Shown: piece by piece, positions 37,951 to 63,958 of the stretch
Layout: the number at the start of each line of letters is the position of its first letter
Numbering within the stretch: position 1 is the first letter of the stretch
NCBI GenBank assembly: GCA_951812955.1
Contig: OX638340.1
Span: 1,856,001-1,920,000, forward strand
Length of the DNA: 64,000 bases
Direction: 5' to 3'
DNA from: an uncultured Gemmatimonadota bacterium
Lineage (GTDB): Bacteria; JAAXHH01
The notes under the pieces: model-generated
Database searches by the model: none
Told to the model about the DNA's origin: nothing
The model's input: only the letters and a program-made list of their open reading frames with translations
Program-made: the position numbers and the translations under genes

Positions 37951-38787
37951 ATGGGATATCAACTAAATGAGCAGCAACTCGCTTTCTTTGACACCTTCGG
38001 ATACCTGGGGTTTCCAGGTCTGCTTGATGATCGTATCGACGAGATCATCAACGACTTCGAGGAGGTCTGGGCAAGTCGCGGGGGCGGCCATCACGGGCGG
38101 CCCCATGACGGTAAGGAGCGCTCCTGTATTGTACCGTTCATTGACCAGCAAGAACGGCTTTCCAGCCTGCTGGACGACGACCGGATCAGGGGCATCGCGA
38201 CCAGTCTGTTGGGCGATGACTTCAACTATATGGGCAGCGATGGCAACTACTACGCTGGAGATACCCGGTGGCACTCCGATGGATGGCACCCTGAAACACT
38301 GCACATAAAGATCGCCTTTTACCTGGACGAATTAACACGGGACACCGGCTGTCTGCGGGTCATTCCCGGCAGCCACAAGCGGGATGACGCCTATGCGGAT
38401 TCACTGCAGCAGCATGTCGGAGAGAGTTCGTCCGTGTGGGATACGGACCCGCGGGATGTGCCTGCGATGGCGCTGGAGACCCGTCCGGGCGACATCGTCT
38501 GTTTCAATCACAATACCAAGCACGCCTCATTCGGCGGCGGCGGGCACCGGCGCATGTTTACCATGAACCTGTGTCAGCGCTATCCCGAGCATCGCCTCCA
38601 GGAACTGCGCGATTACATCAGCGGCGGAGCCCGTTTCTGGTTGGACGAAGCATACGGTGAGGCGATGATCCGCACCGCTACTCCGGATCGCAAGCGTCAC
38701 CTGGAGCAGGTCATGGCCAACGACGATCACTTGCCGGAGTTGAGCCGCCAGGCCAGGGAAAGCATGAGCGAACCGTCAAGGGGCTGA
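37951..38787 (+). CDS. phytanoyl-CoA dioxygenase (PhyH)-family Fe(II)/2-oxoglutarate oxygenase
   Basis: HxD…H facial-triad candidates (WHSDGWH; HNTKHASFGGG). Size and overall pattern match the PhyH family. Confidence 0.6.
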   Translation: MGYQLNEQQLAFFDTFGYLGFPGLLDDRIDEIINDFEEVWASRGGGHHGRPHDGKERSCIVPFIDQQERLSSLLDDDRIRGIATSLLGDDFNYMGSDGNYYAGDTRWHSDGWHPETLHIKIAFYLDELTRDTGCLRVIPGSHKRDDAYADSLQQHVGESSSVWDTDPRDVPAMALETRPGDIVCFNHNTKHASFGGGGHRRMFTMNLCQRYPEHRLQELRDYISGGARFWLDEAYGEAMIRTATPDRKRHLEQVMANDDHLPELSRQARESMSEPSRG

Positions 38788-42343: not shown

Positions 42344-42459
42344 ATGCCCGCTCGATGAAAGATGGGTGGTCTTGTCGGTCTCGGAGGTTTCATTGCGGCG
42401 CCGGCGTTAAAATGTCAAAAGAAAGGGCCCGAAGCTCGTTGCCCAACTTGCGGTACGTC

Positions 42460-44049: not shown

Positions 44050-44065
44050 CCGATTCCTTCCGGGT

Positions 44066-47330: not shown

Positions 47331-47394
47331 CTGCCGCGGCAAACGCGCGATGTAATCGTAAAAGGGACAGGTGCAATTCGCCTGTCCCTTTTCT

Positions 47395-48453
47395 TTACCA
47401 GTTTTCAGGATTCAAGCCGACGCGGATTCCCGCTTCTTCGATCTGCCGCCAGGTGGTATCGTCGATGCTGATCCCTTCACGGCGCCGTTCCTCCGCCAGC
47501 CTGAATTCCGGTTCTCCCGGAACGAGAATCTCTTCGAATCCCGGCGCGGTCCGGCTGGATTTCACGTGCCGGATCAATCCCTCGATCTCCTGGTAGTACC
47601 AGTCCAGGTCCGAGAAGAACGAAATATCGAAGACGGTGAAGAGCACGCCGTTGCTTTCCACGATCTGTTCGCCCTGCGCGCAACCCTGTCCGCTCAGCGC
47701 ACCGCCCAGGACCTCCACCATCAAACCCAGGCTGTAACCCTTATGGGCGACGATTCCGCCCATGGGCAGGATGGCGCCGTTGGGGGGCGGTCCCTTGATG
47801 ACCGTGGGATCCGTGGTGGAGTTGCCTTCGTGGTCGATCAACCATCCTTCCGGAACCCGCACCCCCTTGTTCGCGGCGACCCGGACCTTCCCTTCGGCGA
47901 CGACGGAGGTAGTCAGGTCCACCATGATGGGATCGGCGTCTCGACGGGGCGCCGAAAAGGCGATTGGGTTGGTGCTGATTCGTCCGTCGATACCGCCAAA
48001 AGGCGGAATCTGGCGTCCGAAGCGGCCCGCGTTGACGAAGGCCAGCCCGATCAGACCTTCCCGGGCCGCCATGAGGGGATAGGCGCCTACGCGGCCCACG
48101 TGGCTCGTACGCCGGAGCGTAACCGTGGCCGTGCCGTGCTTACGTGCTTTCTTCATGGCGAGCCGCATGGCGATGGTGCCGCCAACCTGGCCGAGGGCGC
48201 CGCCGTTGTCCACCAGGGCCGTGCAGGGACTTTCTCTCACGATGCCCACGTCGGCCCGGGCCTTGAATCGTCCCTCGTCCATAATGGCCTTGACGTACTC
48301 CGGTATCCGAATGGCGCCGTGGGAATCATGGCCGAAGAGATTCGAGTCCACGAGGTGGTCCACGACGCTGCGGGCATCGTCCTCGGTACAGCCGGCCGCT
48401 TCCAGCACCTCGCAACCGATGCGATGGAGTTTATCGGGGGTAATTACGGGCAT
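47395..48453 (-). CDS. Ldh_2-family oxidoreductase (malate/L-sulfolactate/Pyr2C-reductase-like)
   Basis: N-terminal VLEAAGCTEDDARSVVDHLVDSNLFGHDSHGAIRIPEYV is characteristic of the Ldh_2 family. Confidence 0.7.
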   Translation of the reverse strand: MPVITPDKLHRIGCEVLEAAGCTEDDARSVVDHLVDSNLFGHDSHGAIRIPEYVKAIMDEGRFKARADVGIVRESPCTALVDNGGALGQVGGTIAMRLAMKKARKHGTATVTLRRTSHVGRVGAYPLMAAREGLIGLAFVNAGRFGRQIPPFGGIDGRISTNPIAFSAPRRDADPIMVDLTTSVVAEGKVRVAANKGVRVPEGWLIDHEGNSTTDPTVIKGPPPNGAILPMGGIVAHKGYSLGLMVEVLGGALSGQGCAQGEQIVESNGVLFTVFDISFFSDLDWYYQEIEGLIRHVKSSRTAPGFEEILVPGEPEFRLAEERRREGISIDDTTWRQIEEAGIRVGLNPENW

Positions 48454-48535
48454 TGTCTTCCTTTCCAGGTCTTACGTGTGTACCGACTCTTCAAACGCGC
48501 GATCTGCAACCCGCGGGCGAATGAAACCGGTCGGG

Positions 48536-49570
48536 TCAGGTTCTGTATTTCTCCAGTTTCTTCTGTAATCCCGGCCGTTCGAGCACAGCCCTGTTCACCA
48601 CGTAGGGCGGCTCTTCGCCCCTGGAGACGGCCAGGGCCGCCTTGACGCAGTCGTGGCCGATATCACGAAACAGCTCATGGGTCCAGCACGACGCGTGGGG
48701 CGCCAGGATGACATTCGGGAGCGTGAGCAGCTCATCATCGGGATCGGGCGGCTCCCGTTCGAAGACATCGATGGCCGCGCCCTTGATCCAACCGTCCCGC
48801 AGGGCCCGGGTCAGCGCTTCCTGGTCGACGATCGCGCCACGGGCCGTGTTGACCAGGAAGGCGTCCTCCCTCATGAGGCGCAGTTCCCGCGCGCCGATCA
48901 GGTGCCGGGTGTGTTCGTTCAACGGGCAGTGGATGGTCACGAACGTGCTGCGCCGCAACAGGGTCTCACGGTCCACCAGTACAACGCCCAGTTGCGCGGC
49001 CTCTTCCGCGGACACCGCCGGATCGCTGATGAGGACTTCGGACGGCTCGAAGGGCGCCAGCATGCGCACCACCTCGCGGCCGATCATGCCCATGCCAATC
49101 AGGCCGACCACGCGGCCGCGGATCTCGCATCCCATGTGATCGAACCGGACACCCCAGTCGTCATTCCGTACGATGGCGTCCTTAATCGTCACCCGGTGGC
49201 AGAGTCCGAGCATCAGGGCCATCGTGGCGCTGGCCACGGGCCTCCGGGTGGCCTCCGGAGTGATGGTAATCATGACGTCCGCGTCTGTCGCCGCAGCGAG
49301 ATCGATCATGTCGTAGCCCACGCCGGTTCGCGCGATGAGCGCCAGGCGTTCGACGCCCGCGAAGCTTTCACGCGTGTAGGCCTGTCCCATGGATACGACC
49401 ACGTCGAAGTCTGAAAGCTGATCCGGGGTGACGGGACTCCGGTCTTCGGCAAGGTACGCGTGAGAGACTCCGGCCTTGTCCAGCAGGTCGACTCCGAAAT
49501 CGTCGAACACGACCCCGCCGTCTGGACCCAGCAGGTCGGCGACCAGGGCTACGCGGAATTCATCGGTCAT
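48536..49570 (-). CDS. D-isomer-specific 2-hydroxyacid dehydrogenase, NAD-binding
   Basis: GxGxxG Rossmann motif VVGLIGMGMIGREV. Catalytic R/E/H context (NTARGAIVD…APHAS). Confidence 0.8.
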   Translation of the reverse strand: MTDEFRVALVADLLGPDGGVVFDDFGVDLLDKAGVSHAYLAEDRSPVTPDQLSDFDVVVSMGQAYTRESFAGVERLALIARTGVGYDMIDLAAATDADVMITITPEATRRPVASATMALMLGLCHRVTIKDAIVRNDDWGVRFDHMGCEIRGRVVGLIGMGMIGREVVRMLAPFEPSEVLISDPAVSAEEAAQLGVVLVDRETLLRRSTFVTIHCPLNEHTRHLIGARELRLMREDAFLVNTARGAIVDQEALTRALRDGWIKGAAIDVFEREPPDPDDELLTLPNVILAPHASCWTHELFRDIGHDCVKAALAVSRGEEPPYVVNRAVLERPGLQKKLEKYRT

Positions 49571-49598: not shown

Positions 49599-51656
49599 TC
49601 AGAACAGGATCTGGGACGTCGACTTGGCGATCAAGACCAGGGAGACGGCCGCCATGCCGATCAGCCCAAGGCCGCACCCGTACCCGGCGAGGATCACCGG
49701 CGCGTAGGCGCGCCATCGTTTCTCTCCGTAGCGCCGTCCGAAATAGAACCTTCCCAGCATGGCGCCGATGAACGTGGGCAGCGTGTAGTGAATCCACGCG
49801 CCCGTGCCCAGTCCGGCCACCAGGCCGTAGAAAAGCAGCGGCGGCGCTTTGAGCAGGCTCAGCACCCCGTACAGCGCGAACGTGAACCCCATTCCGGCGC
49901 CGATATACTCCCAGCGGATCAGTTGCCCGATCACGTCTGAGCCGCCCGGCAGGGTAGACTTGATCCAGATCGTCTCCATCGTGGCCTGCAGCGGCCACAT
50001 CTTCTCGACGAAAGGATAGGCCGCGGACGGTATGGGCGCCAGTTTCCAGATCAGGGCGTAGAACACGAAACTGAATACGATAAGCAGTATCAGGCTCAAT
50101 ATATAGAGTTTGACCAGGCTTGGAAATCGCGTTCGGGTGAGTTCCAGCTGCCGGAAAGTCGCCACGACGCCGCTGTGATCGAAGAGGGGAACCGGGGCGA
50201 ACCAGATCGCCACCCCCTTGTAGCCCGACAGGTAGAAGGACCCCTCTCTGGCGTAGGGGAAGGATGACCCGTAGGGAGAGCCCGTCAAACCTATCATGCG
50301 GGCGCCGATGTAGGAGAAAAAAGGCGTCCACAGAAACCCGAACACCACGGAGATCCACACGGGAAACGCCGGTTCAAGGTAGTAGACCAGGGCAATAAAG
50401 CACAGGGTCGAAACCACCCAGAGCGCGATGGGGATGGGCAGCCTGAAATCACCCCTTTCCGGCGGCGGTTTGCGGGGGCCCTGCCCGCCGGACGCCCCAT
50501 CCGGGTCTCTCCTCAACGCGCGGGCGAAGGCGACCAGGCCGATCAGGCCGATGACCAGCGAAGTGCCGATGGAAGAAAAACTCAGCCAGAAGTCGATGGT
50601 GTTGTTGATGGAGGTGGGTATGGTGCTCATCCCCGGCGTCCAACTGTGCAACAGGCCGAAGTGGTAGAGGAGCGGATTGGCAATAAAGGTGATGACGAAG
50701 GAACTGATGAAGGTGCCGACCACGATCCAGAAGGGCAGGACGAATCCCACCAGGAGGGTGGCCATGTCCGTTCCGATGCCGATGGGCGACGCGGGCAGCA
50801 CGTCCCGGAACCGCGGCGTGAAGTCCGCGAAGGGAATGGGGAAGACCTCCACACCCTTGGTCAGCACCACGCCGGAAATGGTGGGGACGACGACATATAA
50901 TATGCCCCAGCCCAGTCCGATCATGGCGCCGACGGTGAACATTCGCCATCGCCAGGTCTCTTCCCCCGCCGACGATTCGGCCAGGGCGGTAGCGCCGGCC
51001 GCCTGCACGGGCGCCAGGGGGAAGGGCAGGCGTTCGGTGTCGGCCGTAATCCGGAAGAGCACGTATCCCAGGGAGAGCGCGTTGACCAGGCCGAGGATGG
51101 ACACGAGGACGGCCAGGAGAATGGGCTCCAGCCACTCCATGGAGAAGAGGGTCCGGGTGATCAACGAATCGGCACCCCGGGGCGGGGAAACCCACTGTGG
51201 AAGAAGCTGGGCCAGGCCGTCCGCCTGGGGAGACTGGATCAGGTACTGGAACCAGATCATCTTGGCGAAGGGCGCGCCGTGCACCGACGACCCGGCCGCC
51301 ATACCGCTGGCGCCCAGTCCCGTGGCCGCAAGCCCGGCGGCAAGCCAGTAGAGGATGATGGCTTCCTGAGGCTTGAGCTTTATAAACAGGCGCTTGCCGA
51401 TCTCGATGAACATGATGATGGTGACCCATTCCGCGGCGCCCGCGAAACTCTTGCCCGTCACCAGTTCCAGGTAGATCGCGCCGGGGAGCATGACCAGCCC
51501 CACGAAGAAGGCGGCCCAGATGATGCGGCTGCTGAACCCGTCCTCGTAGGGCAGGTTGTCCGGAACGATCTGCCACCGGTCATCCTGTTCGGCTCCGGTG
51601 GGAATCGCTTCCCGATCCCGCTGTTCGTGCTGCTCGCGTCTGTTTTCGTCGCTCAT
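49599..51656 (-). CDS. large polytopic membrane protein (685 aa), tentatively OPT-superfamily-like transporter
   Basis: Roughly 14-16 predicted hydrophobic helices. The N-terminal block SRIIWAAFFVGLVMLPGAIYLELVTGKSFAGAAEWVTIIMF weakly resembles the OPT-family N-terminus. ATG start. The family call is low-confidence. Confidence 0.45.
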   Translation of the reverse strand: MSDENRREQHEQRDREAIPTGAEQDDRWQIVPDNLPYEDGFSSRIIWAAFFVGLVMLPGAIYLELVTGKSFAGAAEWVTIIMFIEIGKRLFIKLKPQEAIILYWLAAGLAATGLGASGMAAGSSVHGAPFAKMIWFQYLIQSPQADGLAQLLPQWVSPPRGADSLITRTLFSMEWLEPILLAVLVSILGLVNALSLGYVLFRITADTERLPFPLAPVQAAGATALAESSAGEETWRWRMFTVGAMIGLGWGILYVVVPTISGVVLTKGVEVFPIPFADFTPRFRDVLPASPIGIGTDMATLLVGFVLPFWIVVGTFISSFVITFIANPLLYHFGLLHSWTPGMSTIPTSINNTIDFWLSFSSIGTSLVIGLIGLVAFARALRRDPDGASGGQGPRKPPPERGDFRLPIPIALWVVSTLCFIALVYYLEPAFPVWISVVFGFLWTPFFSYIGARMIGLTGSPYGSSFPYAREGSFYLSGYKGVAIWFAPVPLFDHSGVVATFRQLELTRTRFPSLVKLYILSLILLIVFSFVFYALIWKLAPIPSAAYPFVEKMWPLQATMETIWIKSTLPGGSDVIGQLIRWEYIGAGMGFTFALYGVLSLLKAPPLLFYGLVAGLGTGAWIHYTLPTFIGAMLGRFYFGRRYGEKRWRAYAPVILAGYGCGLGLIGMAAVSLVLIAKSTSQILF

Positions 51657-51756: not shown

Positions 51757-52914
51757 CTACTCCGCCCTGATATAGTTGCCCGCCTTGTCCCAGTCCGGCC
51801 GCGTCAGGCCGTTCAGGTCCCATACCACCTGTCCGGCGCGCACGGTCAGCAGGCATCGCAGCCGCCGGTCGCCGCGCATGCGGGCGAGGCCCGAATCGAC
51901 GAAGCCGAATTCCCCGTATTCCAGTTCCAGCACGGCGACGTCCGCCTCCGCGCCGATGCTCAGGGTACCCAGTTCCGGCCGCCGTATGGTCCGGGCGGGA
52001 TTGCGCGTGGAGCGCATGACCACGTCCTCCAGGGTCATCCCCATGTTCAGGCATTTCGACATGGTCGTGATCATGCTCGCGTTCGGCATAAGGGCACTGT
52101 ACTTGTGGAAATCCGTGCTGACCGTATCCGGCAGGAAGCCCTGCTCGATGGCCGGCACGGCGATGCGGAACCAGAAGCTGCCGCCGCCGTGGCCCAGATC
52201 GAACAGGATGCCCTTGTCCCGCGCCTCCCGGACGTAGTCGTTCACCCTGCCGCGATGGTCCAGCAAGGGGATGTGCTGTGCGTACAGGTGGGTGTGTATG
52301 TCGCCCGGACTCAGTTTCTTCAGCAGCAGGTCCCGGTAGCTGCGGTTCGGCTTCGGTGCGAAATCGATCATGGCAATGGCGCCGCTCCGCCGGGCCGCCT
52401 CGACGGCGCCGTCGACCGCCTCCCACCCCGGTCCGTTGAAATGGGCGGTCTTGGATCCCACGACGTGTTCCGGATACCTGCTGATCATGTCCGCGCAGGG
52501 CACGGGGTCCATCTCCGACACGTCCTGTTCCACGGCGCCTTCCATACCGGCGCCCACGATGTTGATCAGGGCCAGCACCCGGGTTATGGACTCGGCGATG
52601 ACCGTGTCCTTGAAGTCTTCGAATTTCTTCCACCCGGCGCCCCCTGTATCGAGCACCGTGGTCACGCCGTTGGGGAGCACGTGGGCATCGGGGAACACCC
52701 ATCCCCGGTAGCCGCCATAGGCGTGCATGTGGATGTCGATCAGGCCAGGCGTGACGTAATGGCCGTGGACGCGGGCGACCTGTCTCCCGTGCTCCGCCGG
52801 GATGTCGTGTCCAACCGCCGCAATCAGTCCGTCGTTGACGGCGACGTCCCGGCTATCGTTGATGCCGTTTTGGGGATCGATGACCTGTCCGCCCTTGATT
52901 ATGAGATCGTACAT
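51757..52914 (-). CDS. amidohydrolase-superfamily protein (dihydroorotase/D-aminoacylase-like)
   Basis: N-terminal IIKGGQVIDP…VAVNDGLIAAVG…YVTPGLIDIHMHAYGG is the classic metal-dependent amidohydrolase opening. Confidence 0.7.
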   Translation of the reverse strand: MYDLIIKGGQVIDPQNGINDSRDVAVNDGLIAAVGHDIPAEHGRQVARVHGHYVTPGLIDIHMHAYGGYRGWVFPDAHVLPNGVTTVLDTGGAGWKKFEDFKDTVIAESITRVLALINIVGAGMEGAVEQDVSEMDPVPCADMISRYPEHVVGSKTAHFNGPGWEAVDGAVEAARRSGAIAMIDFAPKPNRSYRDLLLKKLSPGDIHTHLYAQHIPLLDHRGRVNDYVREARDKGILFDLGHGGGSFWFRIAVPAIEQGFLPDTVSTDFHKYSALMPNASMITTMSKCLNMGMTLEDVVMRSTRNPARTIRRPELGTLSIGAEADVAVLELEYGEFGFVDSGLARMRGDRRLRCLLTVRAGQVVWDLNGLTRPDWDKAGNYIRAE

Positions 52915-52924: not shown

Positions 52925-55900
52925 TCAGGTCAATTGCGGCGCTTCCGCGGGCGCTCGTTCCTCGACTTTCCGGTACTGGTCCTTGATGGACTCGGAAAGG
53001 GTACGCCACACGAGGAAACGTTTCCGCAGCACGGTGAAGAACCGGCGGTTGATGGTCTGCCACTGCGCAAGGTCCCCGCTGCGCCGGCGGATTGCGATCA
53101 TGATCCGGTACAGGCTTTCACCCGGTACGGGCTCCAGTTCCAGCGCCACGTCCTGGCTGATGGCGAGATCGTAGGGCGCGAGCCATACCGTCGCAGATAC
53201 ACGGTAGCCTTCTATAGGCCGGGCCGGTACCACGTCATGCGCCGTTCCCTCCGCGACGAAATCCTCGGCCGAACTGTCCTCGTGGGTCTGGAAAATGTGT
53301 GCCAGGTATCCCGCCAGCGGATAGGCCTCCGGGATGGTGACGGTAAAGGGAAACTCGAAGCGCCAGTCGTCGCCGTCGGGCGTTGGTGGCGCCCAGCGCC
53401 GGGTCACGTCCTCCACCGTCATGTCCGCGGCCTTTTTGGCCGGGTAGAGGGTGGACAGGAACACGACGACCATGACGACCACCGTCGCGTATACGGTCGA
53501 CAACGAGGAATAGTTCAGCGACAGGCCGCCCAGCAGGTCCCACTGCGACAGGCCCATGGTGATGATCTGGCCGGTGAGGTACCCGAACACAGCGCCTAGG
53601 GTGGCGAATACGGCCGCTTCGGCGATGAACAGCGCGGCAACGTGGTTCGGCGCCAGGCCCACGGCGCTGTATACGCCGATCTCCCGGAACCGTTCGAACA
53701 CGGCGCCCATCATGGTGTTCAGAACCAGGAACGCCGCGATGAGCACCGGGATGATCAGGTTGGCCAGGCCCGAGACCGAAGTGGCGCCAAGGGAGCTGTA
53801 GACCTTCACCTCGTCTTCCGTTCCGACAAACACGGCCAGGAGGACCCGTGACATGAAGGCCTCCACGGAATCGCGGAGTTGATCGCCATCCGCGAACCCC
53901 GTGATCGCCACGGACCGCGTGGATCCGTTCAGGTCGAGGGTCTGGCGGTAGGGCAGGACCAGCACGTTGCGGGATGGCAGGTGTTCGGAGGCCTGGATCG
54001 TTGACATGAATACCTCCACGTCCATTTCGGTCAACGAACGGGTCATGGAAAAACTGGCGGGCATGATGCTTTCGTCGTCCATGTCCCGGTAGGCGTCCAG
54101 GCCATCGGATTCGAGCAGTCCGATCACGGTATAGCGGCCGCCCAGGATCTCCACGACCGCCGTACCTACGTCCTCGGGCTCCACGTCCAGCCTTTCGGCC
54201 AGTTCCGTGGGCAGCAGACACACCGCCCTTTCGTCAGGACCGAACCATCGCCCGCCCGGTACCAGGTAGCGGTCCAGCCCGGAAATGGCCGGTTCGTCGG
54301 CGTGAAGTCCGAGCAGGGACTGTACCGTGGTGGAGGTTCCCCGGCCCGGCGCCCGCAGGTCTATGTAGGGGCTGGTGAGATCCTCGGGCTCGTACCACGA
54401 CCTGGGCACGACCTCGGCCTGCGCTTTGAAGGCGTTTTCCACGTAGGGCAGGAAAGAAGAGGGCAGCGAGTGCCACGACAGGTTGCGCATGAGGACGCCG
54501 TCGTACGGGGGGGCGTTCTCGCGGTCCAGCGTATAGAACTGGATGCCGGTCCTGAAGGAGGTGAAGGAAAGCACGGTAAAGGTCAGCAGGGTCAGCGTCA
54601 CCGCCGTCAGAGCCGTGCGCAGCTTCCGCTTGCGAAGGTTCGAAATCCCGAGCGATATGGCCACCGCCGTGGCGCTCAGCCGGCCGATGTCCGCCTCGTG
54701 AAGGCCGGCCGCCGACCGGGTCAGGTTCTTCATCTCCGTGTCGAACCGCGTGACGATCATGGTAATGATAATCAGCGCCATGGCCAGGATGATGAAGGCG
54801 AGGAAAACCATGTAGGGCGTCAGGCTGAGTTGAAAGGCCGGATGCACGTTCTGCAGCAACAAAAAGACCGCCGCGAAGATCACGCCCACCGCGAGCAGCC
54901 GCTTGCGAATGTCCGGGAACCCGAAGAACAGTCGCTCGAGGAAGAAGCAGAAGGGTACCAGCAGCATGAAGTAGAAAACGATGCCGTCCACCGTGTCGTC
55001 CGCGGCGTACCGTACATCGGGATAGGCGCGGGCCTCGTAGCCCCACGCTTCCCTCGACCGGGCCACGAAGGCATCGTAGCGGCGGTCTTCCAGGGCTTCC
55101 CGCGCCGCCCGAAGCGCCTGCGTGCTTTCTTCATGCAACTCGGCTGCCCGGGCGTTCGTCACGCCGTGGTCCTCCAGTTTCATCAGCCGCGCCCTGTTGA
55201 GCGACCACAGGTCCAGGGCGCTCTGGTAGAAGGGATAGAGAATCGGCCCCCGGTCCGCCGTGAAGCCTTGTCCCTGTGCCAGGGCCATGACGTCGTCGGA
55301 GATGCTTTCCGGCGGATCGTCGAGCCAGGACTCCGGCGTATTGGTCAGCAGGTACTTGACGCCCCGGGGACCCGCGCTCATGAACATCTTGACGCGGTCC
55401 TCGGGCTTTGCGAAGACCACCGCGGCGTTGGTCATCCAGTTGCCGAAGAAACTCTGGTCTTCCACGAAGGCCGCCCCGTACTTTCGCAGTGGGCTGTTGT
55501 CCCGTCCGAGCACGGTCAGGTTGTCGAGAGCGACGAAGACGCCGGGATCGACGATATCGAAGAGGTTGATCTCCTCGCACGGAAAGAGGACCTGTATGGT
55601 ATTGTTCACCTTGGACGAATTCGGCACCGCGAGAGGGAAGGTGGCGTCGCCCTCCTCCCCCAGGTCCGGCGCGTACACGACCCTGCCTGTGTCGTCCAGG
55701 CCATAGCTGCGAACCTCGGTCGGGCCCTTGGAGTCGCGGACCATGGAAAAACGGAAGTAACCCATCGAATCCGCGTGGGTGACCATGAACCCCCGCACGC
55801 CGCTGTGGCTCTGGTAGCCCGGCTCGTAGACGACCAGGGCATCGGATACCGGGGTGTTGGGCTTGAAGAAATCCACGGTGCGGTCGAACTCGAGGACCCG

Positions 55901-57511
55901 GCCCTCGATGTCGCGGCCGTCGTCTTTCAGCCGAATGGACTCGTCCACGTCGAAGGCCTCGGGGTCCGACAGCATGGCCGGCAGCAAGGTGCCGATGGTC
56001 CTGATCTGCCGGACCAGGTTGGGGAAATCGACGTGCTCGACCCGGTCGACAGGCGTATCGATCAGCAGCCTGTTGTCGTTCACCGTGGAGAAGGTCATGC
56101 CATGCAGCCCCGCGAGCGTGACCATCTCATGATCGAAGGCTGGACCCGCGGGCATGTAGCTTTCCTGGGACCTGAGCGAAGGCGTCAGCGTATTGAGGTA
56201 GGCCGTCCGGCTGTCCTCCCGATCGTACACGCCGGCCTTGCGTGCGTAATTCATGTACCGGTCCGCATAGGGTTCGTACAGTATATCCAGATTCGAGGCG
56301 AAGAAGATGTAATCGCCGTAGCTGAACAGCCCGACCTGGTCCATCCGGCTGGTCAGGTCCAGACCCAGGAAAAGCGTGAAGGGGATCCGGTCCGCCTCAG
56401 GTATGCGTTCCAGGAAAAAATCGTCCGTCCGATAGTGGCGGTCCAAGAAGTCGTTTATGCCCTGCATGCCGTGGAAATGGGCGGACGTGGCCAGAAACAG
56501 CACGGTGTATCCGGGAGGATGGGCGCGGAACACGTCCAGCAGTTCCAGCATCGCCGCGATGCCGCCCGCGCTCTCGGCGCCCGGGGCCTGTCCGGGTACG
56601 ACCGACATGGCGTCATAGAATGCCGACAACACGACGACGCGGTCCTTCCACTTTTCTGTCCCGTCGCCGCCGGGAATCGGTTCGTCCCGACCCTGTATCC
56701 ACCCCATGACGTTCCAGGTTTCAGCCCGTTCCCACGACATGCGACCCCGGATCGTCACGTCGATGTTGCCGGGTCCTTCGGACCGGGCGGCCTGCAGCAC
56801 CTTCGCCGCGTGGGGATCGGGAATCCAGAACCGCGGGACGTCTGCGGGCACGTCCAGGATCTTGCGCTGGGCCTGGTTGTTGGTCACCGCGCCCGGACCG
56901 CTGTCGTAGAACAGGATAGCCTGCGCGCCCAGCATCCGCGCGTTGAGATACTGGTCTCGCCCGTCGAAATCGATCAGGACGATGCTTCCCTCGATCTCTT
57001 TCCCGTTGAAGGCCTGGAATTCGCCCCGGCGTCCATAGTGCAGTGGGCCTTTGATGCCGTTGGGAAAGGAATTCAGCCGGACCAGATTGGGCCAGAACTG
57101 GTACACCGGGATTTCGGTTTCAACTGAATCGTGCAGGGTAAGCGTGAACCCGTGGTCGACCGGCGAGGAAACGGTGAAGGTATCGATGGTTACTTCGGAC
57201 AGTCCCCCTGCATGGAACGCGTCGACCACGTACTCCATGGCCGCGCGGTTCCCCGGGTAGCCCACGACGCGCGACGGATGTGCGCTCATCGACCGGACGT
57301 GGGCCTCGACGCCCTCCACGGTCACGATTTCGGAGACTTCTTCCCAGGTCACTGGAGCTTCTTCGAGGGGCCTGGGAGTCACGTCATCGGGAAGCGAGAC
57401 GAACCTCAGGATCACGTGCTCCGTGACCCAGGCCGGACCGGCCACGGCCACGGCGAGGAAGAGCAGGACGCCCACGACAAGAAAGAAAGTTCCGAAAATC
57501 CGAGAATACAC
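52925..57511 (-). CDS. 1528-aa fusion membrane protein: N-terminal TM + PA domain + M28-peptidase-like domain, fused to a MacB/FtsX-type permease module, with a ~190-aa C-terminal tail
   Basis: PA-domain pattern GSIVLIDFDGR…AQAILFYD. M28-like blocks VVVLSAFYDAMSVVPGQAPGAESAGGIAAMLELL and LFLATSAHFHGMQGINDF. Three TM helices around residues 835-900. An FtsX N-terminal TM (NLRKRKLRTALTAVTLTLLTFTVLSF), a ~300-aa periplasmic domain, and an FtsX C-terminal 3-TM bundle (…REIGVYSAVGLAPNHVAALFIAEAAVFATLGAVFGYLTG…). GTG start, 1 nt after the upstream stop. Confidence 0.65.
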   Translation of the reverse strand: MYSRIFGTFFLVVGVLLFLAVAVAGPAWVTEHVILRFVSLPDDVTPRPLEEAPVTWEEVSEIVTVEGVEAHVRSMSAHPSRVVGYPGNRAAMEYVVDAFHAGGLSEVTIDTFTVSSPVDHGFTLTLHDSVETEIPVYQFWPNLVRLNSFPNGIKGPLHYGRRGEFQAFNGKEIEGSIVLIDFDGRDQYLNARMLGAQAILFYDSGPGAVTNNQAQRKILDVPADVPRFWIPDPHAAKVLQAARSEGPGNIDVTIRGRMSWERAETWNVMGWIQGRDEPIPGGDGTEKWKDRVVVLSAFYDAMSVVPGQAPGAESAGGIAAMLELLDVFRAHPPGYTVLFLATSAHFHGMQGINDFLDRHYRTDDFFLERIPEADRIPFTLFLGLDLTSRMDQVGLFSYGDYIFFASNLDILYEPYADRYMNYARKAGVYDREDSRTAYLNTLTPSLRSQESYMPAGPAFDHEMVTLAGLHGMTFSTVNDNRLLIDTPVDRVEHVDFPNLVRQIRTIGTLLPAMLSDPEAFDVDESIRLKDDGRDIEGRVLEFDRTVDFFKPNTPVSDALVVYEPGYQSHSGVRGFMVTHADSMGYFRFSMVRDSKGPTEVRSYGLDDTGRVVYAPDLGEEGDATFPLAVPNSSKVNNTIQVLFPCEEINLFDIVDPGVFVALDNLTVLGRDNSPLRKYGAAFVEDQSFFGNWMTNAAVVFAKPEDRVKMFMSAGPRGVKYLLTNTPESWLDDPPESISDDVMALAQGQGFTADRGPILYPFYQSALDLWSLNRARLMKLEDHGVTNARAAELHEESTQALRAAREALEDRRYDAFVARSREAWGYEARAYPDVRYAADDTVDGIVFYFMLLVPFCFFLERLFFGFPDIRKRLLAVGVIFAAVFLLLQNVHPAFQLSLTPYMVFLAFIILAMALIIITMIVTRFDTEMKNLTRSAAGLHEADIGRLSATAVAISLGISNLRKRKLRTALTAVTLTLLTFTVLSFTSFRTGIQFYTLDRENAPPYDGVLMRNLSWHSLPSSFLPYVENAFKAQAEVVPRSWYEPEDLTSPYIDLRAPGRGTSTTVQSLLGLHADEPAISGLDRYLVPGGRWFGPDERAVCLLPTELAERLDVEPEDVGTAVVEILGGRYTVIGLLESDGLDAYRDMDDESIMPASFSMTRSLTEMDVEVFMSTIQASEHLPSRNVLVLPYRQTLDLNGSTRSVAITGFADGDQLRDSVEAFMSRVLLAVFVGTEDEVKVYSSLGATSVSGLANLIIPVLIAAFLVLNTMMGAVFERFREIGVYSAVGLAPNHVAALFIAEAAVFATLGAVFGYLTGQIITMGLSQWDLLGGLSLNYSSLSTVYATVVVMVVVFLSTLYPAKKAADMTVEDVTRRWAPPTPDGDDWRFEFPFTVTIPEAYPLAGYLAHIFQTHEDSSAEDFVAEGTAHDVVPARPIEGYRVSATVWLAPYDLAISQDVALELEPVPGESLYRIMIAIRRRSGDLAQWQTINRRFFTVLRKRFLVWRTLSESIKDQYRKVEERAPAEAPQLT

Positions 57512-57512
57512 G

Positions 57513-59507
57513 TCAGTCTATCCCGTAGATATGATGCCCCGCGTGGGGGAACCATATGTAATCAACGAACATGGAGATGACCACGCCGGTAGCCACACCG
57601 AAGATAAGGCCCAGGAAGAAGGGCTGACCCTTTCGGTACAGCTCGATACCGCCGACCCACATCATGATGCTCTTGATGACCCAGCAAACGAACATGGACG
57701 ACACGATAGCGCGTGCGGGCCACGAGTAGGAAAGGAAGAAACCGAGGGGATGCAGCGGCCAGCCGGGCAGCCGGGCCCTCAGGGTCATGAGCAGGAACAT
57801 GAGCCAGCCGCCCACCATGAAGAACATGAGGCGGGCCGTGTCCGGTCCGAAGGGATCCCGCATCTTGGTGAGCGTTTCGTTGTAGGGGATGGTCGATCCG
57901 ATCCTTCCGAACCACCATCCGTTGGTGAACTGCCGCGTGCCCTGGTCGAATCCCAGGTAGATCGTCCAGATCAGCGCGATCACCACGCCGATCACCGCGG
58001 CGGACAGGACTGTCCAGCCCAGTCCACGGTGCCAGCGCGCACCGATCTCTGAAAGCTTGGCCACCTGCATGAAGGCGGGCATGAAGGTCGATTTGATCTC
58101 GCTGACGGGTCCATAGGTCTGGGCCATCGCCGTCATGGTGGACATGGACAGGTTCGCCGACCCGACCGAGTAGAATACGAGCACCTGGGCGATCATGGGC
58201 GAACGCACGTAGGGCAGCCCGGCTTCGGCGATGATGCGGGAGACGCCGATATAGATGACGAAGACGCCCGCGAGGAGGAACACGGCAATGGGCACGCTCA
58301 TGCCCAGCTGGTTCAGCCACACGATCCCGTAGACGAACCCGCCGAGAAAGCCGAAGACGGCGACCCGGTAGGGCAGCATCTCATCGGAGTCGTCCAGGTC
58401 CGATCTGCGGCCGAACGCATGGGAGAACACCGCGCGGATGTGAAACCTGGCCCGCCACAGCCCCCAGGCTACGAACACGATGAAGGCGCCCATGTTCTGC
58501 CAGTCCAGCATGGGGTGGATTGACGTGTAGTTGTCCCTGCCAGGTATGTCGTAACCGATCCGTTGTGCGATGCCTACCTGGATGATCCCGATCATGTAGA
58601 ACACCCAGAACCCGGCCAGCACGTCCAGGTTGACGAAGTAGGAAATACCGAGGATGGCTGGCCGGAAGTTGATCTCCAGCGGAGGGAATCCTTCGCCGAA
58701 GACAATGGGCGGCGCCGACCCGAAATAGGGAAACTGGGGCACGACCGGTGTGAAGTATCCGATAATGTTGTACATCATCACGCAGAAAGGGATGGAAAAG
58801 CCGATCCAGAAACGTTTCTCGGTCATAAATTCCGGGATGCGTCCCGACGATTCCATGCCTCGCGTCAAGGCGAGGGGGATCTGCATCATGGGGAATACCA
58901 GTTTCTCGTGTTCGACCCACTGTCTTCTGAGGATCACCACGAGACACAGCCCCATGAAGATGATCGGTACGATGAAGGTCAGCCACCAGAACAGGGGAAT
59001 GCCCCACACGCTCCAGGGTATGGACTCACCGGGCGGGATACCGTCGACGAACCAGGTCAGCGCATTGCCCTGGTTGGTGACGTTCGCCCAGGGTTTCAAA
59101 TAGGGATAAAAGTATTCTGCCCACTGGTTCTCGGGCGTCGCCAGGAGATTCGGCGCCATGAGCGTGGAGATAAACGGGGCGCCCATGCCGTTGGTCGACA
59201 GCCCGGAAGCCGCCATGCCCATGGCCAGGGGGATGACGAACTCGTGGGACGTCAGGGCCCAGTCTTTCTTCCACCGGGCCAGTATCACGTTGAACAGGAT
59301 GAGATACGCAAAGGCCAGGAACAACGCACCGATGTGAAGATGGTCCGCGCCGAGTTGAGACGAGGCCATGGTGTACTGAAAATAGGGGACGATCAGGGAA
59401 ATCAGGACGACGCTCGTCAGGCCCAGGAGGATGGATCTCGGCGTAATGATCCGGGTCGCGGTCGTCGGGCCGGCGGAAGAGGATACACTTTGCTGGGCTG
59501 AGGCCAT
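57513..59507 (-). CDS. large polytopic membrane protein (~665 aa), tentatively OPT-superfamily-like transporter
   Basis: Many hydrophobic helices and similar size and architecture to the 49599..51656 product. The first ATG is at 59507 (MASAQQS…). The longest ORF (TTG at 59615) adds an F/Y-rich 36 aa encoded by AT-rich DNA, so I judge the extension non-coding. Confidence 0.45.
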   Translation of the reverse strand: MASAQQSVSSSAGPTTATRIITPRSILLGLTSVVLISLIVPYFQYTMASSQLGADHLHIGALFLAFAYLILFNVILARWKKDWALTSHEFVIPLAMGMAASGLSTNGMGAPFISTLMAPNLLATPENQWAEYFYPYLKPWANVTNQGNALTWFVDGIPPGESIPWSVWGIPLFWWLTFIVPIIFMGLCLVVILRRQWVEHEKLVFPMMQIPLALTRGMESSGRIPEFMTEKRFWIGFSIPFCVMMYNIIGYFTPVVPQFPYFGSAPPIVFGEGFPPLEINFRPAILGISYFVNLDVLAGFWVFYMIGIIQVGIAQRIGYDIPGRDNYTSIHPMLDWQNMGAFIVFVAWGLWRARFHIRAVFSHAFGRRSDLDDSDEMLPYRVAVFGFLGGFVYGIVWLNQLGMSVPIAVFLLAGVFVIYIGVSRIIAEAGLPYVRSPMIAQVLVFYSVGSANLSMSTMTAMAQTYGPVSEIKSTFMPAFMQVAKLSEIGARWHRGLGWTVLSAAVIGVVIALIWTIYLGFDQGTRQFTNGWWFGRIGSTIPYNETLTKMRDPFGPDTARLMFFMVGGWLMFLLMTLRARLPGWPLHPLGFFLSYSWPARAIVSSMFVCWVIKSIMMWVGGIELYRKGQPFFLGLIFGVATGVVISMFVDYIWFPHAGHHIYGID

Positions 59508-59739
59508 GGAAAGGGCCGGATTGTGATACTTGCGGTGACTGAAATACGGTAATGAATCTAGTCTGCGGGTCCAGAATATGTAAAATGGCAGACGGTATAA
59601 GTCAAAGAAAAACAAAGTTCCATGAGGTCCTGAGCCACCATCGGCCAGACCTTTTCGTTGTTGACACGATTCCGGTTTGCGGGGATATTTCCATACCTTG
59701 ATGTACCCGTTTCATACGAGGGATTTACAGTGAAGGCCG

Positions 59740-62270
59740 AAACGAGAGCCGCCATAGACCGCTTGCTGAACAGGTACATCGCCTTCATCTGCCGCCATCC
59801 GGCGAAGATCCTCCTGGGTGCGCTGCTGACCGCATTGCTCTCCGCGCATTTCGCATCCAGGCTTCAGCTTAAAACCGACTTCGTGGAACTGCTCCCGGAA
59901 GGCTACCGGAGCGTCGACGACATTCACCGGATCACGGAGCGCGTCGGCGGCATCGGCAACCTGACCGTCGTCATTGAAACGGAAGACCTGACTTCGGCAC
60001 AGCGGTTCGCCGACGACCTCGCCGGCAGGATCCATTCCGATCTTCCCGAGGGGTATATCCGGTATATCGAGTACCGGGTGGACGAGGAGAAGCGCTTCTA
60101 CGAAGACCACAAATATCTGTATGCGGATCTGGAGGACCTGGAAGAGATCCAGAACCGCCTGAGCCGACAGATCCTGAAGACGAAACTGGAGCAGAACCCC
60201 CTCTTCGTTTCCGAGGAAGACCTCGGGCTGGAAACGGAAGACGAACCGTTTACCTTGAGCGATCTGGAAGAGAAGTACGAAAAGAAAGCGGGGGAGAAGC
60301 TGGACAAGTGGGTCGACGGCTATTTCACGGGGCACGACGAGCAGGGGCAGTTTCTCGTCATGGTCCTGAAACCCTTCGGTTCGTCGACCGGCGTTTCCTT
60401 TTCGCGGGACCTGTGCGAACGGGTACTCGCCATCGTAGAAGGGCTTGACCCCCCGTCATACCATCCATCGCTGAAAGTGGGCCTCACCGGCAAGTACCGC
60501 CTGATCCTGGACCAGTACTCTTCCGTCCAGCGGGAGATCTTCTCGTCCGCCGCCTTCACACTGACCCTGGTGGCCCTGGTCATCTTCCTCTACTTCCGCA
60601 CCATCGTCCCGGTCATCAACATCACGCTGGTCGTGGTCGTCGGCATACTCTGGACGTTCTGCCTGACCTATTTCCGCATTGGCTACCTCAACATGCAGAC
60701 CGCCTTCCTGGGCGCCATCATCATTGGGAACGGCATCAACTACGGCCTGATCCTCATGGCCAGGTACAAGGAAGAAAGGCTGCAGGGAGCGGACGCCCTT
60801 GAAGGCGTGCAGATCGCCTTTCGGAATACGATTACCGCGACGGTCACAAGCGCGGCGTCCACGGGCCTCGCATACGGCACGCTCATGATCACTGATTTTC
60901 GCGGCTTCAATCACTTCGGGTTCATCGGCGGCCTCGGCATGCTGCTGTGTTGGATTTCCACCTTTTCTATCATGCCGGCGCTGCTGATGCTGTGGGACCG
61001 CACCCGTTTCGGGCGGAAGACCTGGACGCGGAAGGTCTCGCGGGGCGGGTCGCTGACCCATCTCGCCAACCTGGTGCAAAAGGCGCCGCAGGCCGTGGTG
61101 GGCACGAGTATCTCCCTGGTCGTGCTGGGTACCGCCCTCCTGGTGTGGTGGCTTCCGAATTCCTTCGAATACGACTTCTCGAAACTGCGAAACGAACCGC
61201 GGGGCGATACTTACGAGCGGATCCTCAACCACCGCGTAAACGCCCTGTTCGGTATATCGCAGTCTCCCGCGGTTATCCTCGCGGACCGCCTGGACCAGGT
61301 CCCGGGCATCCGGCGCGCCGTGCTGGACAAGAAAGAAGCGGAGAAAGAGGGTCCCAAACCGACCATCGACCGGGTGCGAACCATCTTCGATCTGCTGCCG
61401 GAGGACCAGGAAGACAAGATCGACGTGCTCTGGGACATAGATTACATGCTGGACACCAATCCGCCCGACGAACTTGGCATACCGCCCGACCAGCTCGAAA
61501 GGATCAACGCGTTCCGAGAGAACCTGAGCCTGGATGAAATCACCGTTGATGACCTGCCCCAGGCGCTCACGCGTCCCTTCGAGGAGCGGGACGGGACAGT
61601 GGGCAGGCTCGTCTACGTCTACCCGAGGTCGGACGCCGGACTCTGGAACGGCAGGAACCTGATCCGGTTCGCGGAAGTCGTCCGTTCCAACCGCCTGCCA
61701 GACGATGAAGTCATCTATTCCTCCGGTGAGGCCGTGGTATTCGCCGACATGCTGAAGGCCGTGGACCGCGACGGCCCCATTGCCACGGTCGCCTGCTTCG
61801 TGGGCGTTATCGCGCTACTCTTACTGGCATTCCGCAGCGTCCACGCGTCGGTCGTGATCCTGGCTTCCCTGCTGGGCGGCATGCTGGTCATGGGCGGCGT
61901 CATCGCCGTCTTCGACATCAAGGTGAATTTCTTCAACTTCATCGTCATACCCACTACGCTGGGGATCGGCGTGGACTACAGCGTGAACCTGTATCAACGC
62001 TACCGCCTTGACGGACGCGGTTCCATACGTAATATGGTACAGCATACAGGCGCGGCCCTGGTCATGTGTTCGTCCACGACGCTGATCGGTTACACTTCTC
62101 TCATGCTCACGTCCAACCGGGGCCTGCATTCCTTCGGCATCATGGCCAACGTGGGAGAGATCGCCACGCTGGCAACGGCCCTGGTCGCGCTGCCCGCCTA
62201 TCTGCTTATTATGGAAAAGCGGATGAGGAACAAGGCGCCTGGAACGCGGAGTCCGGTTCACGCCGCTTGA
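59740..62270 (+). CDS. RND-superfamily exporter, MMPL/HpnN-like (two large periplasmic loops, 12 TM)
   Basis: Layout is N-terminal TM (ILLGALLTALLSAHF), a periplasmic domain, a TM bundle, a second periplasmic domain and a second TM bundle, ~840 aa. GTG start at 59740 preceded by GAGGGA (59728-59733) at 6-nt spacing. The ORF track's TTG at 59658 would leave only 42 nt of divergent intergenic space. Confidence 0.7.
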
Positions 62271-62323
62271 GACCGACTTCTACAGCCCTGCCGTTCGGAA
62301 ATGAGTCGAACAAGGCCGGTTAC

Positions 62324-63958
62324 ATGAACCTTCATGCAGTGGACTACCGCCAGGTGTTGCCGGATCACCTGCTGCATACCTTTCTCGACGATTTCGAGTC
62401 ACTGCGGCACTTCTATACTTACGATCCCCGCGACCCGGACGTCTGGCCGCGCGCGATCGATGCAGTAAGATCCCGGTCAAATCCCCCACCGAGAAAGGCC
62501 GTATCCCGGACGCTCGAGGCGCAGAACGGCCGCTACGGGGCGGACGAAAGCGTCCTCGAAAACGCCCGTGCCCTTGGCGGCGAGGATACCTTCGTGATCT
62601 CCACGGGTCAGCAGACCGGACTATTCACCGGTCCGCTCTATACGATTTACAAGGCCATCACGGCCGTCAAGCTGGCGAAGCGGGTATCGGAAGAAACGGG
62701 CGTGCGGGCCGTACCGGTTTTCTGGATGGCCTCCGACGACCACGACTACGCCGAGATCAACCATGTCCACGTCTGCCGAGCGGACGGGGACGCCTTGCGC
62801 TTTGAACTGAGTCCCGACGACCCCAATGACCGCCGTTCCGCGAGCGACCGCCTGCTTGGACCCGAAATCGCGGCGCTGCTCGAGCAGTTTGCCGATGCCC
62901 TGCCCGATTCGGAATACAGCTCCTCCGCCATCTGCGCGCTTCGGCAGCACTGTACCGCCGGAACTTCGCTTTCCGAAGCCTTTGCCCGGCTGATGACACT
63001 GCTATTTCAGGGACAGGGCCTGGTTCTCGTAGACCCCACCGACCCGGCACTGAAACCCCTTATGAGCCCCGTGTTCGAACAGGAAATCCGCGATCCGCTC
63101 GCATCCACGCGCTCGGTCCTGTCTACTTCAGAAAAACTGTCCGACGCCGGGTTCGATTCCCAGGTCTCCCGTCTCCCCGAGGCGGTAAACCTGTTTCTCT
63201 ACCAGGACGGACAGCGGAACGCCCTGAGCTACGGGAATGGACGGTTCAGCAACCGGGACGGCAGCCTGTCCTTTACGGAACGGGACCTGCTGCGCGTGCT
63301 CGAGGATTCGCCCGAGCGATTCACCCACAACGTCATCACGCGTCCCCTGGTGCAGGACAGCCTGTTTCCGACGCTGACCTATATCGGCGGTCCGGCGGAA
63401 ATCGCCTACTACGGTCAGCTTGGCGGAGTCTATCGCCAGTTCGGTCTGCCTTTCCCCGTGGTCTATCCCCGCGCTTCCCACACGCTGGTGGGCGCCAGGA
63501 CCGCCCGGATACTGGAGAAGCACGGCCTCACGATCTCCCATTTCGTCCAGGGGATAGAGTCCGTGGTCGACCGGAAACTGCGGGACGACATGCCGGTACA
63601 TATCACCGAGGGACTTCGTGCCGCCCGTGGCGACGCGGAAGCCCATTACCGGAACCTGAAGGGACACGTGACGGCGCTCGACCCCGGGTTGAGCCGGATC
63701 GTGGACGCTTCGGAAAGAAAGACCAACTTCGCCCTGGGCAAGCTGGAGGAAAAGACCCTCCGGGCCATGAAGAGAGCGGACGGAGTCATGCGCGGCCAGA
63801 TCATGCGGGCGGACCGCATGATCTATCCCAACGGTCATCTCCAGGAACGGGTGGCCAACATCTGGCAGTACGTCGCCCTCTACGGAGTCGATGTCATGAA
63901 GACACTCTTCGAAGCCACGGATGAAACGGACTTCAGGCACAGGATAACCCCGCTATGA
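62324..63958 (+). CDS. bshC: bacillithiol biosynthesis cysteine-adding enzyme
   Basis: Aligns by eye with B. subtilis BshC (YllA): TGQQTGLFTGPLYTIYKAITAVKLAK vs GGQQAGLLTGPLYTIHKIISIIVLAK, and VPVFWMASDDHDYAEINHV vs IPIFWVAGEDHDLDEINFV. Length 544 aa. The ORF-track start at 62066 overlaps the RND gene and is probably too long. Confidence 0.8.
   Translation: MNLHAVDYRQVLPDHLLHTFLDDFESLRHFYTYDPRDPDVWPRAIDAVRSRSNPPPRKAVSRTLEAQNGRYGADESVLENARALGGEDTFVISTGQQTGLFTGPLYTIYKAITAVKLAKRVSEETGVRAVPVFWMASDDHDYAEINHVHVCRADGDALRFELSPDDPNDRRSASDRLLGPEIAALLEQFADALPDSEYSSSAICALRQHCTAGTSLSEAFARLMTLLFQGQGLVLVDPTDPALKPLMSPVFEQEIRDPLASTRSVLSTSEKLSDAGFDSQVSRLPEAVNLFLYQDGQRNALSYGNGRFSNRDGSLSFTERDLLRVLEDSPERFTHNVITRPLVQDSLFPTLTYIGGPAEIAYYGQLGGVYRQFGLPFPVVYPRASHTLVGARTARILEKHGLTISHFVQGIESVVDRKLRDDMPVHITEGLRAARGDAEAHYRNLKGHVTALDPGLSRIVDASERKTNFALGKLEEKTLRAMKRADGVMRGQIMRADRMIYPNGHLQERVANIWQYVALYGVDVMKTLFEATDETDFRHRITPL

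Follow-up and report, generated by a model that had tools for sequence, protein, structure and literature searches.

What might an FtsX-type permease do when it is built into the same chain as a peptidase-like ectodomain and no ATPase gene lies at its side? The question is raised by one gene in a 64,000-nt stretch of contig OX638340.1 from an uncultured Gemmatimonadota bacterium, the whole of which is called the window here. The gene, referred to as the fusion gene (52925..57511, minus strand), encodes a polypeptide of 1528 aa from a GTG start and with no interruption. An earlier reading of the letters, made without database searches (the sequence-only reading), had proposed that M28 and FtsX parts share this single open reading frame (ORF), and Pfam does find Peptidase_M28 (PF04389, residues 287-502, 30.2 bits against a cut-off of 21.3), MacB_PCD (PF12704, residues 966-1159, 28 bits against 27) and FtsX (PF02687, residues 1255-1364, 51.3 bits against 25.5) in one polypeptide. 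The genes that accompany it encode polytopic membrane proteins that we relate to the OPT fold, and we tentatively favour the reading that the 1528-aa protein is a subunit of an OPT-fold uptake system, in which it would combine a receptor or processing role with that of a mechanotransducer.

Linkage of the fusion gene to putative OPT-fold partners

The start codon of the fusion gene lies 1 nt past the stop codon of the upstream gene (57513..59507, minus strand), which encodes a polytopic membrane protein of 664 aa from the ATG at 59507, with the domains DUF6785 (369 bits) and DUF6784 (78 bits). The AlphaFold2 model of this protein had a pLDDT of 87 and a pTM of 0.88 and, when it was used as a Foldseek query, barley Yellow Stripe 1 (HvYS1), an iron-phytosiderophore transporter, was the sole significant match (E 1.9e-9, probability 1.0, TM-score 0.63/0.69). 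According to this model, the DUF6785 protein has the OPT/Yellow Stripe-like (YSL) fold, with about 16 transmembrane (TM) helices.

A second polytopic membrane protein, OPT-B (685 aa; 49599..51656, minus strand), is encoded two genes downstream of the fusion and matches no Pfam or NCBIfam model. In other subfamilies, the protein encoded directly downstream of the fusion is 49-51% identical to it, and the comparison of the OPT-B profile with DUF6785 (hhalign 95.5%, E 1.5e-8, 557 columns) identifies OPT-B as a remote homologue of that family. The same-strand cluster also comprises an amidohydrolase/deacetylase-family metallohydrolase (51757..52914, minus strand; PRK09237, 367 bits against a cut-off of 371) and, at its end, a D-2-hydroxyacid dehydrogenase (48536..49570, minus strand); these two genes are linked to the fusion only in the close orthologous group.

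The linkage was evaluated on 86 fusion genes, from 84 loci plus the window, by looking for a partner gene within 6 kb. A DUF6785 or OPT-B gene was present at this distance from 81 of the 86 fusion genes and, when only the genes with at least 6 kb of flanking sequence on both sides were counted, from 60 of 61; one genome contained tandem DUF6785-fusion-DUF6785-fusion pairs. Besides the OPT-like genes, no further neighbour family was common to the subfamilies. These partner genes, which flank the fusion on either side and went unremarked in the sequence-only reading, tell more about it than any other feature.

In a homologue of 2120 aa (P0314, a 6363-nt ORF on a 123-kb contig), the ectodomain, the three TMs, the FtsX module and the cytoplasmic tail are followed, after an acidic linker, by DUF6785 and DUF6784 in one chain. 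Six more clusters, on separate contigs, join FtsX to DUF6785 and are 47-65% identical to a query composed of the tail plus DUF6785 of P0314. The joint between tail and DUF6785 fits the topology, as the two ends that it connects lie in the cytoplasm. Taken with the operon structure, these natural fusions are strong evidence that the fusion protein and DUF6785 act as one system.

In the reading that we favour, the fusion protein would be one subunit of a conserved inner-membrane system, the other subunit(s) being DUF6785/6784 and/or OPT-B. The PA/M28-like ectodomain, lying outside the membrane, would serve as the receptor for a nutrient that resembles a peptide or otherwise bears an amino group, and perhaps also as a non-canonical trimming enzyme; the OPT-fold permease would then take over the substrate and import it with protons as the driving force. 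The FtsX module would probably form a homodimer, as other MacB-type permeases do; it would relay conformational changes between the two periplasmic domains and the cytoplasmic side, and could be driven by an unlinked MacB/LolD-type ATPase acting on the coupling loop, or via the tail and the permease. The direction of transport is suggested by precedent, since prokaryotic OPT genes often lie beside peptidase genes and are predicted to encode peptide importers (PMC3061005), and by the presence of the amidohydrolase and the 2-hydroxyacid dehydrogenase in the cluster. The occurrence of several paralogues per genome, as in nutrient-acquisition families, also speaks for uptake, and the diverged copies may be substrate-specialised uptake modules.

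Several observations weigh against this proposal. Neither the DUF6785 protein nor OPT-B matched the Pfam OPT model at E<=10, which weakens what can be deduced from the OPT family about the substrate, and no match to either protein was obtained in a PDB sequence search. The neighbours other than the OPT-like genes differ between subfamilies. In the mirror-tree analysis, the high overall correlation between the fusion and its partners stems from the orthologous groups, and the correlation between subfamilies was r 0.10 for DUF6785, a value reached in 72 of 300 permutations, and only modest, r 0.34, for OPT-B. Moreover, the ectodomain lacks the canonical M28 catalytic machinery, so that a trimming activity is speculative, and all characterised MacB/FtsX-type permeases operate with an ATP-binding cassette (ABC) ATPase (PMC5985334).

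The ectodomain and its M28-like pocket

Hydropathy analysis of the fusion protein gave eight TM segments, at residues 5-23, 840-858, 868-886, 902-920, 968-986, 1246-1264, 1291-1309 and 1332-1350. The most N-terminal one (57443..57499; this and all the other parts of the fusion gene are on the minus strand) would anchor the chain as an N-in signal segment, unless it is a signal peptide that is cleaved, as the residues AVA and then GP that come next may suggest. It is followed by an ectodomain of about 815 aa (residues 24-839, 54995..57442), which consists of an M28-like domain with a probable PA insert and of a conserved extension of about 310 aa, C-terminal to the M28-like core. The match to the PA domain (PF02225; residues 168-213, 56873..57010) stayed at 21.9 bits, under the cut-off of 23.9, when the full protein was scanned, and reached 24.6 bits with the segment on its own; the homologue P0024 gave 29.6 bits. 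The M28-like core (residues 287-502, 56006..56653) holds the positions F298, D300, E313, H345, F346, D385, E462 and D485 of the metal site, which are discussed below. The middle of the ectodomain (residues 520-860) had no Pfam match at E<=10 and no PDB profile match. A bundle of three TMs by hydropathy (residues 840-920, 54752..54994), which is kept across the family, leads from the ectodomain to a cytoplasmic loop of 47 aa (residues 921-967, 54611..54751); this loop ends in SNLRKRKLRT, the canonical FtsX N-terminal basic motif, and the MacB_PCD match begins at residue 966.

The metal site was compared with that of the Aeromonas aminopeptidase (AAP) by a family profile alignment and with that of E. 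coli Iap by hhalign; residues are numbered from Val1, the alignment A1 being offset by -1. In the profile alignment, His97 of AAP corresponds to F298 and Asp99 to D300. Both comparisons place the bridging Asp at E313, in a loop that is one residue shorter, the general base Glu151 of AAP, and likewise the first Glu of the Iap EE pair, at H345, and Glu152 at F346. The hhalign comparison reached the fourth ligand, an Asp kept as D385, and not the last His; the correspondence of AAP His256 with D485 comes from the motif match alone (RVDTPxD against RIHTTQD), and a PDB profile search with the C-terminal half of the M28 block returned no matches. The five zinc-ligand positions hold F298, E313, F346, D385 and D485, and only D385 is unchanged. 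The blocks SAFYDAM, GAESAGG and AHFHG, which the sequence-only reading had assigned to substituted ligand positions, are present, and the profile alignments put them at the sites that it had indicated.

A comparison of 121 relatives at positions 298/300/313/345/346/385/462/485/489 gave the pattern F/Y/H, D, E, H, F (or H in 24), D, E, D, D. H345 was found in 121 of 121 sequences, and D300, E313, H345, D385, E462 and D485 are invariant or nearly so; a His is present at position 298 in 29 of the relatives and at position 346 in 24, and the Glu-Glu pair occurs in none of them. As judged from these alignments, the canonical di-zinc aminopeptidase machinery is absent. Since the replacement residues are themselves invariant, the pocket is a conserved polar site that has been remodelled under selection, rather than a decayed one, and it could still bind one metal or catalyse some reaction. 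The earlier suggestion of a pseudo-peptidase used for binding is plausible; a non-canonical and perhaps mononuclear chemistry is possible as well.

The same suggestion had drawn a parallel with the transferrin receptor (TfR) and PSMA scaffolds, and this was not supported: TFR_dimer gave no match at E<=10 in residues 520-860, and the profile search of solved structures led to Nicalin and bacterial aminopeptidases, not to TfR or PSMA. Nicalin was the best solved-structure match to the M28-like block, with E 1.5e-7 and over only about 66 residues. The best Aeromonas match in the PDB profile search was 2anp, the sequence of a Glu151His mutant, which we take to be a deposited functional mutant.

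The FtsX module and the question of its drive

The FtsX/MacB-type module (residues 968-1350, 53462..54610) is composed of one TM, a MacB-like periplasmic domain of about 260 aa and three further TMs, and its best solved relatives in a PDB search were YtrF, MacB and LolC. It has the features that mark type VII permeases, namely an FtsX domain, a periplasmic core between TM1 and TM2, a 4-TM topology and a coupling helix. The coupling loop between TM2 and TM3 (residues 1265-1290, with the motif ERFREIG; 53642..53719) stood out in the conservation profile as the most conserved stretch of the whole fusion protein, with 14 of its 26 positions (54%) conserved at 95% or more; the FtsX TM1, TM3-4 and the tail came next, and the ectodomain had the lowest values, 8-11%. 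A coupling role has been described for this cytoplasmic loop (PMC5985334). The cytoplasmic tail (residues 1351-1528, 52928..53461) was modelled with a pLDDT of 84 as a beta-alpha-beta4-alpha-alpha, helix-grip/KA1-like fold; it gave no Pfam match at E<=10 and no PDB profile match. The possibility that the tail is a cryptic nucleotide-binding domain was discarded, on account of this fold and of the lack of Walker motifs. All the parts listed in the sequence-only reading were therefore recovered, with some of the sizes corrected: the periplasmic domain is of about 260 rather than 300 aa, and the tail of about 165-178 rather than 190 aa. As the coupling loop, the FtsX TM1 and the tail are the most constrained regions, the fusion protein is likely to have a conserved cytoplasmic partner, which might be an unlinked ATPase, the tail itself or the permease.

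The sequence-only reading had pointed out that the window lacks an ABC ATPase gene in spite of its four FtsX-module proteins, and both statements proved correct. A six-frame motif scan of the 64-kb window detected no ABC ATPase, and phmmer with two ABC queries returned nothing at E<=10. The four proteins are the fusion and three ADOP-like duplicated permeases (25-2142, 2701-5106 and 20017-22422, plus strand), each with MacB_PCD and FtsX twice; these three score about 300 bits with TIGR03434, under the cut-off of 622, and have no ATPase gene nearby. In the ORF at 25-2142, the first periplasmic domain is without its start, and the gene probably extends upstream beyond the edge of the window. The fusion protein, with a single FtsX unit, scores 21.7 bits with the same ADOP model (cut-off 622.3). 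Two other genes of the window may be mentioned here: a fusion of a chloramphenicol-phosphotransferase-like kinase with a GNAT acetyltransferase (23047-24177, minus strand) has the only genuine Walker A among the ORFs of the window, and a Peripla_BP_6 periplasmic binding protein (32171-33550, minus strand) is an orphan transport part in a window without an ABC ATPase.

The nearby MacB-type ATPase that the sequence-only reading had proposed to look for was not found, since none of the 86 related fusion genes is directly adjoined by an ABC ATPase gene. In loci of the L001/L018 type, the nearby ABC genes belong to a BPD_transp_1 importer about 8 kb away. In five loci of two lineages, a LolD-type ATPase is encoded 4-5 kb downstream of the fusion, together with its own small FtsX permease. 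There, a cassette downstream of OPT-B (L074 14234-17365, L058 17394-20329, and also L031, L036 and L037) encodes a protein of about 300 aa (X300), a protein of about 126 aa judged by eye from its sequence to be PqqD-like, a mini-FtsX of 228 aa and the LolD-type ABC ATPase. The mini-FtsX is almost devoid of a periplasmic loop and is 60% identical between the two lineages. We regard the cassette only as a lead: it may be a system of its own or a hint at the ATPase of the fusion. As general ATPases of the fusion, the cassette and the other neighbouring ABC genes were rejected, being restricted to few loci and paired with other permeases.

The position of the ATPase also bears on the first of the alternative explanations, which we hold to be rather unlikely: type VII ABC mechanotransmission in the usual sense, by an ATPase encoded elsewhere and shared with the orphan ADOP-like permeases. 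Here the powered FtsX module would move the ectodomain so that it acts on the envelope, its target being peptidoglycan, an exopolymer or a lipoprotein, much as FtsEX does with EnvC, PcsB or RipC and YbbAP with TesA, and the OPT-like proteins would merely recycle the released products. The complete FtsX module with its near-invariant coupling loop and the frequency of orphan FtsX permeases in the same window agree with this explanation, as do a variant with LysM (peptidoglycan-binding) repeats in its ectodomain and the known type VII systems with periplasmic hydrolases (PMC12646458, PMC7668044). The small FtsX and ABC ATPase found a few kb downstream in five loci could be cited as well; this pair, however, is confined to two lineages and has its own permease, and no ATPase occurs in the window or abuts the fusion in the 86 loci. 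In addition, there are several paralogues per genome with no linkage to division or cell-wall genes, and the covalent tail-DUF6785 fusions speak for the OPT-like protein as an integral partner rather than a recycler. An FtsX module that works independently of any ATPase is also conceivable, if unlikely: the proton-driven cycle of the permease would be mechanically coupled to the stalk and ectodomain, or the reverse, through the coupling loop and the helix-grip tail, and the fusion protein and the OPT-fold permease would together form a heteromeric transporter.

The two other explanations concern the function of the ectodomain. It could be an active, membrane-tethered metallo-aminopeptidase, probably mononuclear, which trims extracellular peptides for immediate import by the adjacent OPT-fold proteins, with FtsX mainly as an anchor and dimerisation scaffold. 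E313, H345, D385 and D485 would form its site, joined in some members by H298 or H346, and the invariance of the replacement residues in the 121 relatives, unlike the drift of a dead site, would suit an enzyme, as would the best Aeromonas match, to the Glu151His sequence 2anp, and the precedent for peptidase-OPT gene linkage (PMC3061005). We nevertheless consider such an activity rather doubtful, as most members have Phe/Tyr and Phe in place of two of the five canonical ligands, the Glu-Glu pair is present in no member, and the strongest selection is on the coupling loop and tail, which is unexpected for a passive anchor. Uptake of metal chelates (metallophores), by a transferrin-receptor-like or chelate receptor ectodomain and a Yellow-Stripe-like permease, appears improbable. 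In the loci inspected, none of the genes next to the fusion had a link to iron or other metals, no similarity to TfR/PSMA was detected, and peptide substrates are predicted from genome context for most prokaryotic OPTs (PMC3061005); this is to be set against the partner's only solved structural relative, an iron-phytosiderophore transporter, against the conserved acidic/His pocket, which could hold a metal, and against the placing of prokaryotic OPTs, in one part of PMC3061005, in an 'iron-siderophore subdivision' of the family tree.

The family, the rest of the window and known systems

The sequence-only reading had asked for homologues with the same fusion, and hundreds were found across several phyla. 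A word-indexed search gave 360 homologous clusters, nearly all of 1460-1890 aa, named only 'FtsX-like permease family protein', 'M28 family peptidase' or 'hypothetical', and Planctomycetota appear among the protein names of these clusters. A scan of one genome per GTDB species revealed at least 587 loci among the species-representative genomes; the hosts are mostly metagenome-assembled genomes (MAGs) of Latescibacterota and Gemmatimonadota, many of them with sponge-style isolate names, plus Zixibacteria, and two or more diverged fusion copies occur per genome. The protein of one locus (L003, OY762445.1) is 98% identical to that of the window. An exhaustive HMMER search with the ectodomain alone as query recovered, at E<=1e-30, the representatives of 642 clusters defined at 50% identity, and 110 of the 150 best representatives, with about 1450-1900 aa, carry the ectodomain, the three TMs, the FtsX module and the tail in one protein; the short homologues look like contig-end fragments.

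These counts also bear on the integrity of the gene. Conservation runs unbroken over all the domain junctions, and only in a contig of low coverage (L087) was the ectodomain part predicted as an overlapping gene of its own. The objection that the sequence-only reading had raised against itself, a pair of genes joined by a frameshift, was rejected with next to no residual doubt, and so was a joining of two genes by faulty assembly, full-length single-ORF homologues being plentiful across phyla, assemblies and closed MAG chromosomes. As for the claim that the architecture belongs to no described family, it stands in so far as no specific Pfam or NCBIfam model covers the fusion and no paper was found, in our literature search, on an M28-FtsX fusion or on an FtsX-OPT pairing, nor any that mentions DUF6785 or DUF6784; the family is, on the other hand, very populous, though its members are without functional annotation, so that one half of the refuting condition set by the sequence-only reading, a family both well populated and annotated, applies.

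Some variants enlarge the ectodomain. In P0329 (2451 aa), LysM repeats and an NMB0315-like domain are inserted in it, which hints at a contact with glycan or peptidoglycan. P0245, P0246 and P0248 have 2769-3053 aa; the first has an N-terminal extension of more than 1100 aa with Big_5 Ig-like domains, and the extensions of the other two are of similar length.

The remaining part of the window contains a histidine-utilisation cluster (39816-45715, minus strand) with a hutH-like aromatic amino acid lyase (42460-44049), a urocanase (44066-45715), an imidazolonepropionase-like amidohydrolase (41060-42343) and a further amidohydrolase (39816-41063), beside which lie a creatininase (38878-39735) and a PhyH dioxygenase (37951-38787). 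The stretch 2001-12000 has a G+C content of 0.50-0.53, against about 0.60 elsewhere in the window, and a positive GC skew; it contains beta-lactamase-fold, APH, GldB-like and SDR genes and, at its edge, a gene for an ankyrin-repeat protein (11799-12650, plus strand). An ORF of 424 aa (47371-48645, plus strand) has no family match, and a protein of 839 aa (17326-19845, minus strand) shows weak matches to DUF4962 and Laminin_G_3, both under the cut-off. An MMPL/RND-type transporter gene (59658-62270, plus strand) is divergent from the DUF6785 gene and is followed by BshC, of bacillithiol biosynthesis (62066-63958, plus strand); from their first possible starts the two ORFs overlap by about 200 nt, and the start of BshC is probably further downstream.

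All the component folds are known, and it is the combination of M28, FtsX and OPT that is undescribed. In most members of the family, an operon ties the FtsX and OPT folds together, and in one subclade the two are covalently fused. This touches on the views of MacB/FtsX-type permeases as ATP-driven mechanotransmitters only and of OPT-family transporters as stand-alone secondary carriers only. The system would either capture nutrients with a machine of a new type or energise an FtsX module in a new way. It also offers a first functional handle on DUF6785, DUF6784 and the unmodelled membrane family of about 680 aa, and OPT-B would merit a family model of its own.

Like MacB, LolCE, FtsX and YtrF, the fusion has a 4-TM module with a MacB-like periplasmic core between TM1 and TM2, the FtsX 3-TM domain, the ERxxEIG coupling loop and the PAxxAA C-terminal motif. 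Unlike them, it is neither fused to an ABC ATPase nor encoded next to one, in the window or in the 86 loci, it carries four extra TMs and an ectodomain of about 815 aa at the N-terminal side and a helix-grip-like tail at the C-terminal side, and its near-constant partner, by gene linkage, is an OPT-fold protein instead of a periplasmic adaptor or an ATPase. The association of an FtsX-type module with a hydrolase-fold extracytoplasmic domain recalls FtsEX with EnvC, PcsB, CwlO or RipC, and YbbAP-TesA (PMC7668044, PMC12646458), whereas in the fusion the hydrolase-like domain is covalently joined, has the M28 fold and a remodelled site, and is accompanied by a partner with a secondary-transporter fold. 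With the ADOP-like duplicated permeases (TIGR03434) it shares the condition of an orphan FtsX-type protein without an adjacent ATPase, but it has one FtsX unit and not two.

On the side of the ectodomain, the PA-domain M28 aminopeptidases (Aeromonas AAP, Bacillus YwaD, Aneurinibacillus 2EK8 and E. coli Iap) share with the fusion the M28 match and probably the PA domain, and can be aligned with it through the HxD, GAxDN and EE blocks and the fourth-ligand Asp. The fusion differs from them by His to Phe/Tyr (or His), Asp to Glu, Glu-Glu to His-Phe and His to Asp replacements, and its domain sits in a membrane protein of 1528 aa. With Nicalin and nicastrin it would share the concept of a degenerate peptidase ectodomain used as a receptor subunit; these are eukaryotic, single-pass proteins with other partners, and the similarity seen with them is that of the shared M28 fold. 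The partner is 12-13% identical to the OPT/YSL transporters (TC 2.A.67; barley Yellow Stripe 1, PDB 7WSR/7WST), with the Pfam OPT model unmatched, and DUF6785/6784 and OPT-B stand apart from them as uncharacterised families; the literature search gave no example of an OPT protein that works with an FtsX-type subunit. Finally, an ATPase-independent mechanotransmission machine, if it proves true, would be categorically new; it would bear a loose analogy to the pseudo-enzyme 'heavy chains' of eukaryotic heteromeric transporters, with the difference that an ABC-type permease fold would here be the building material.

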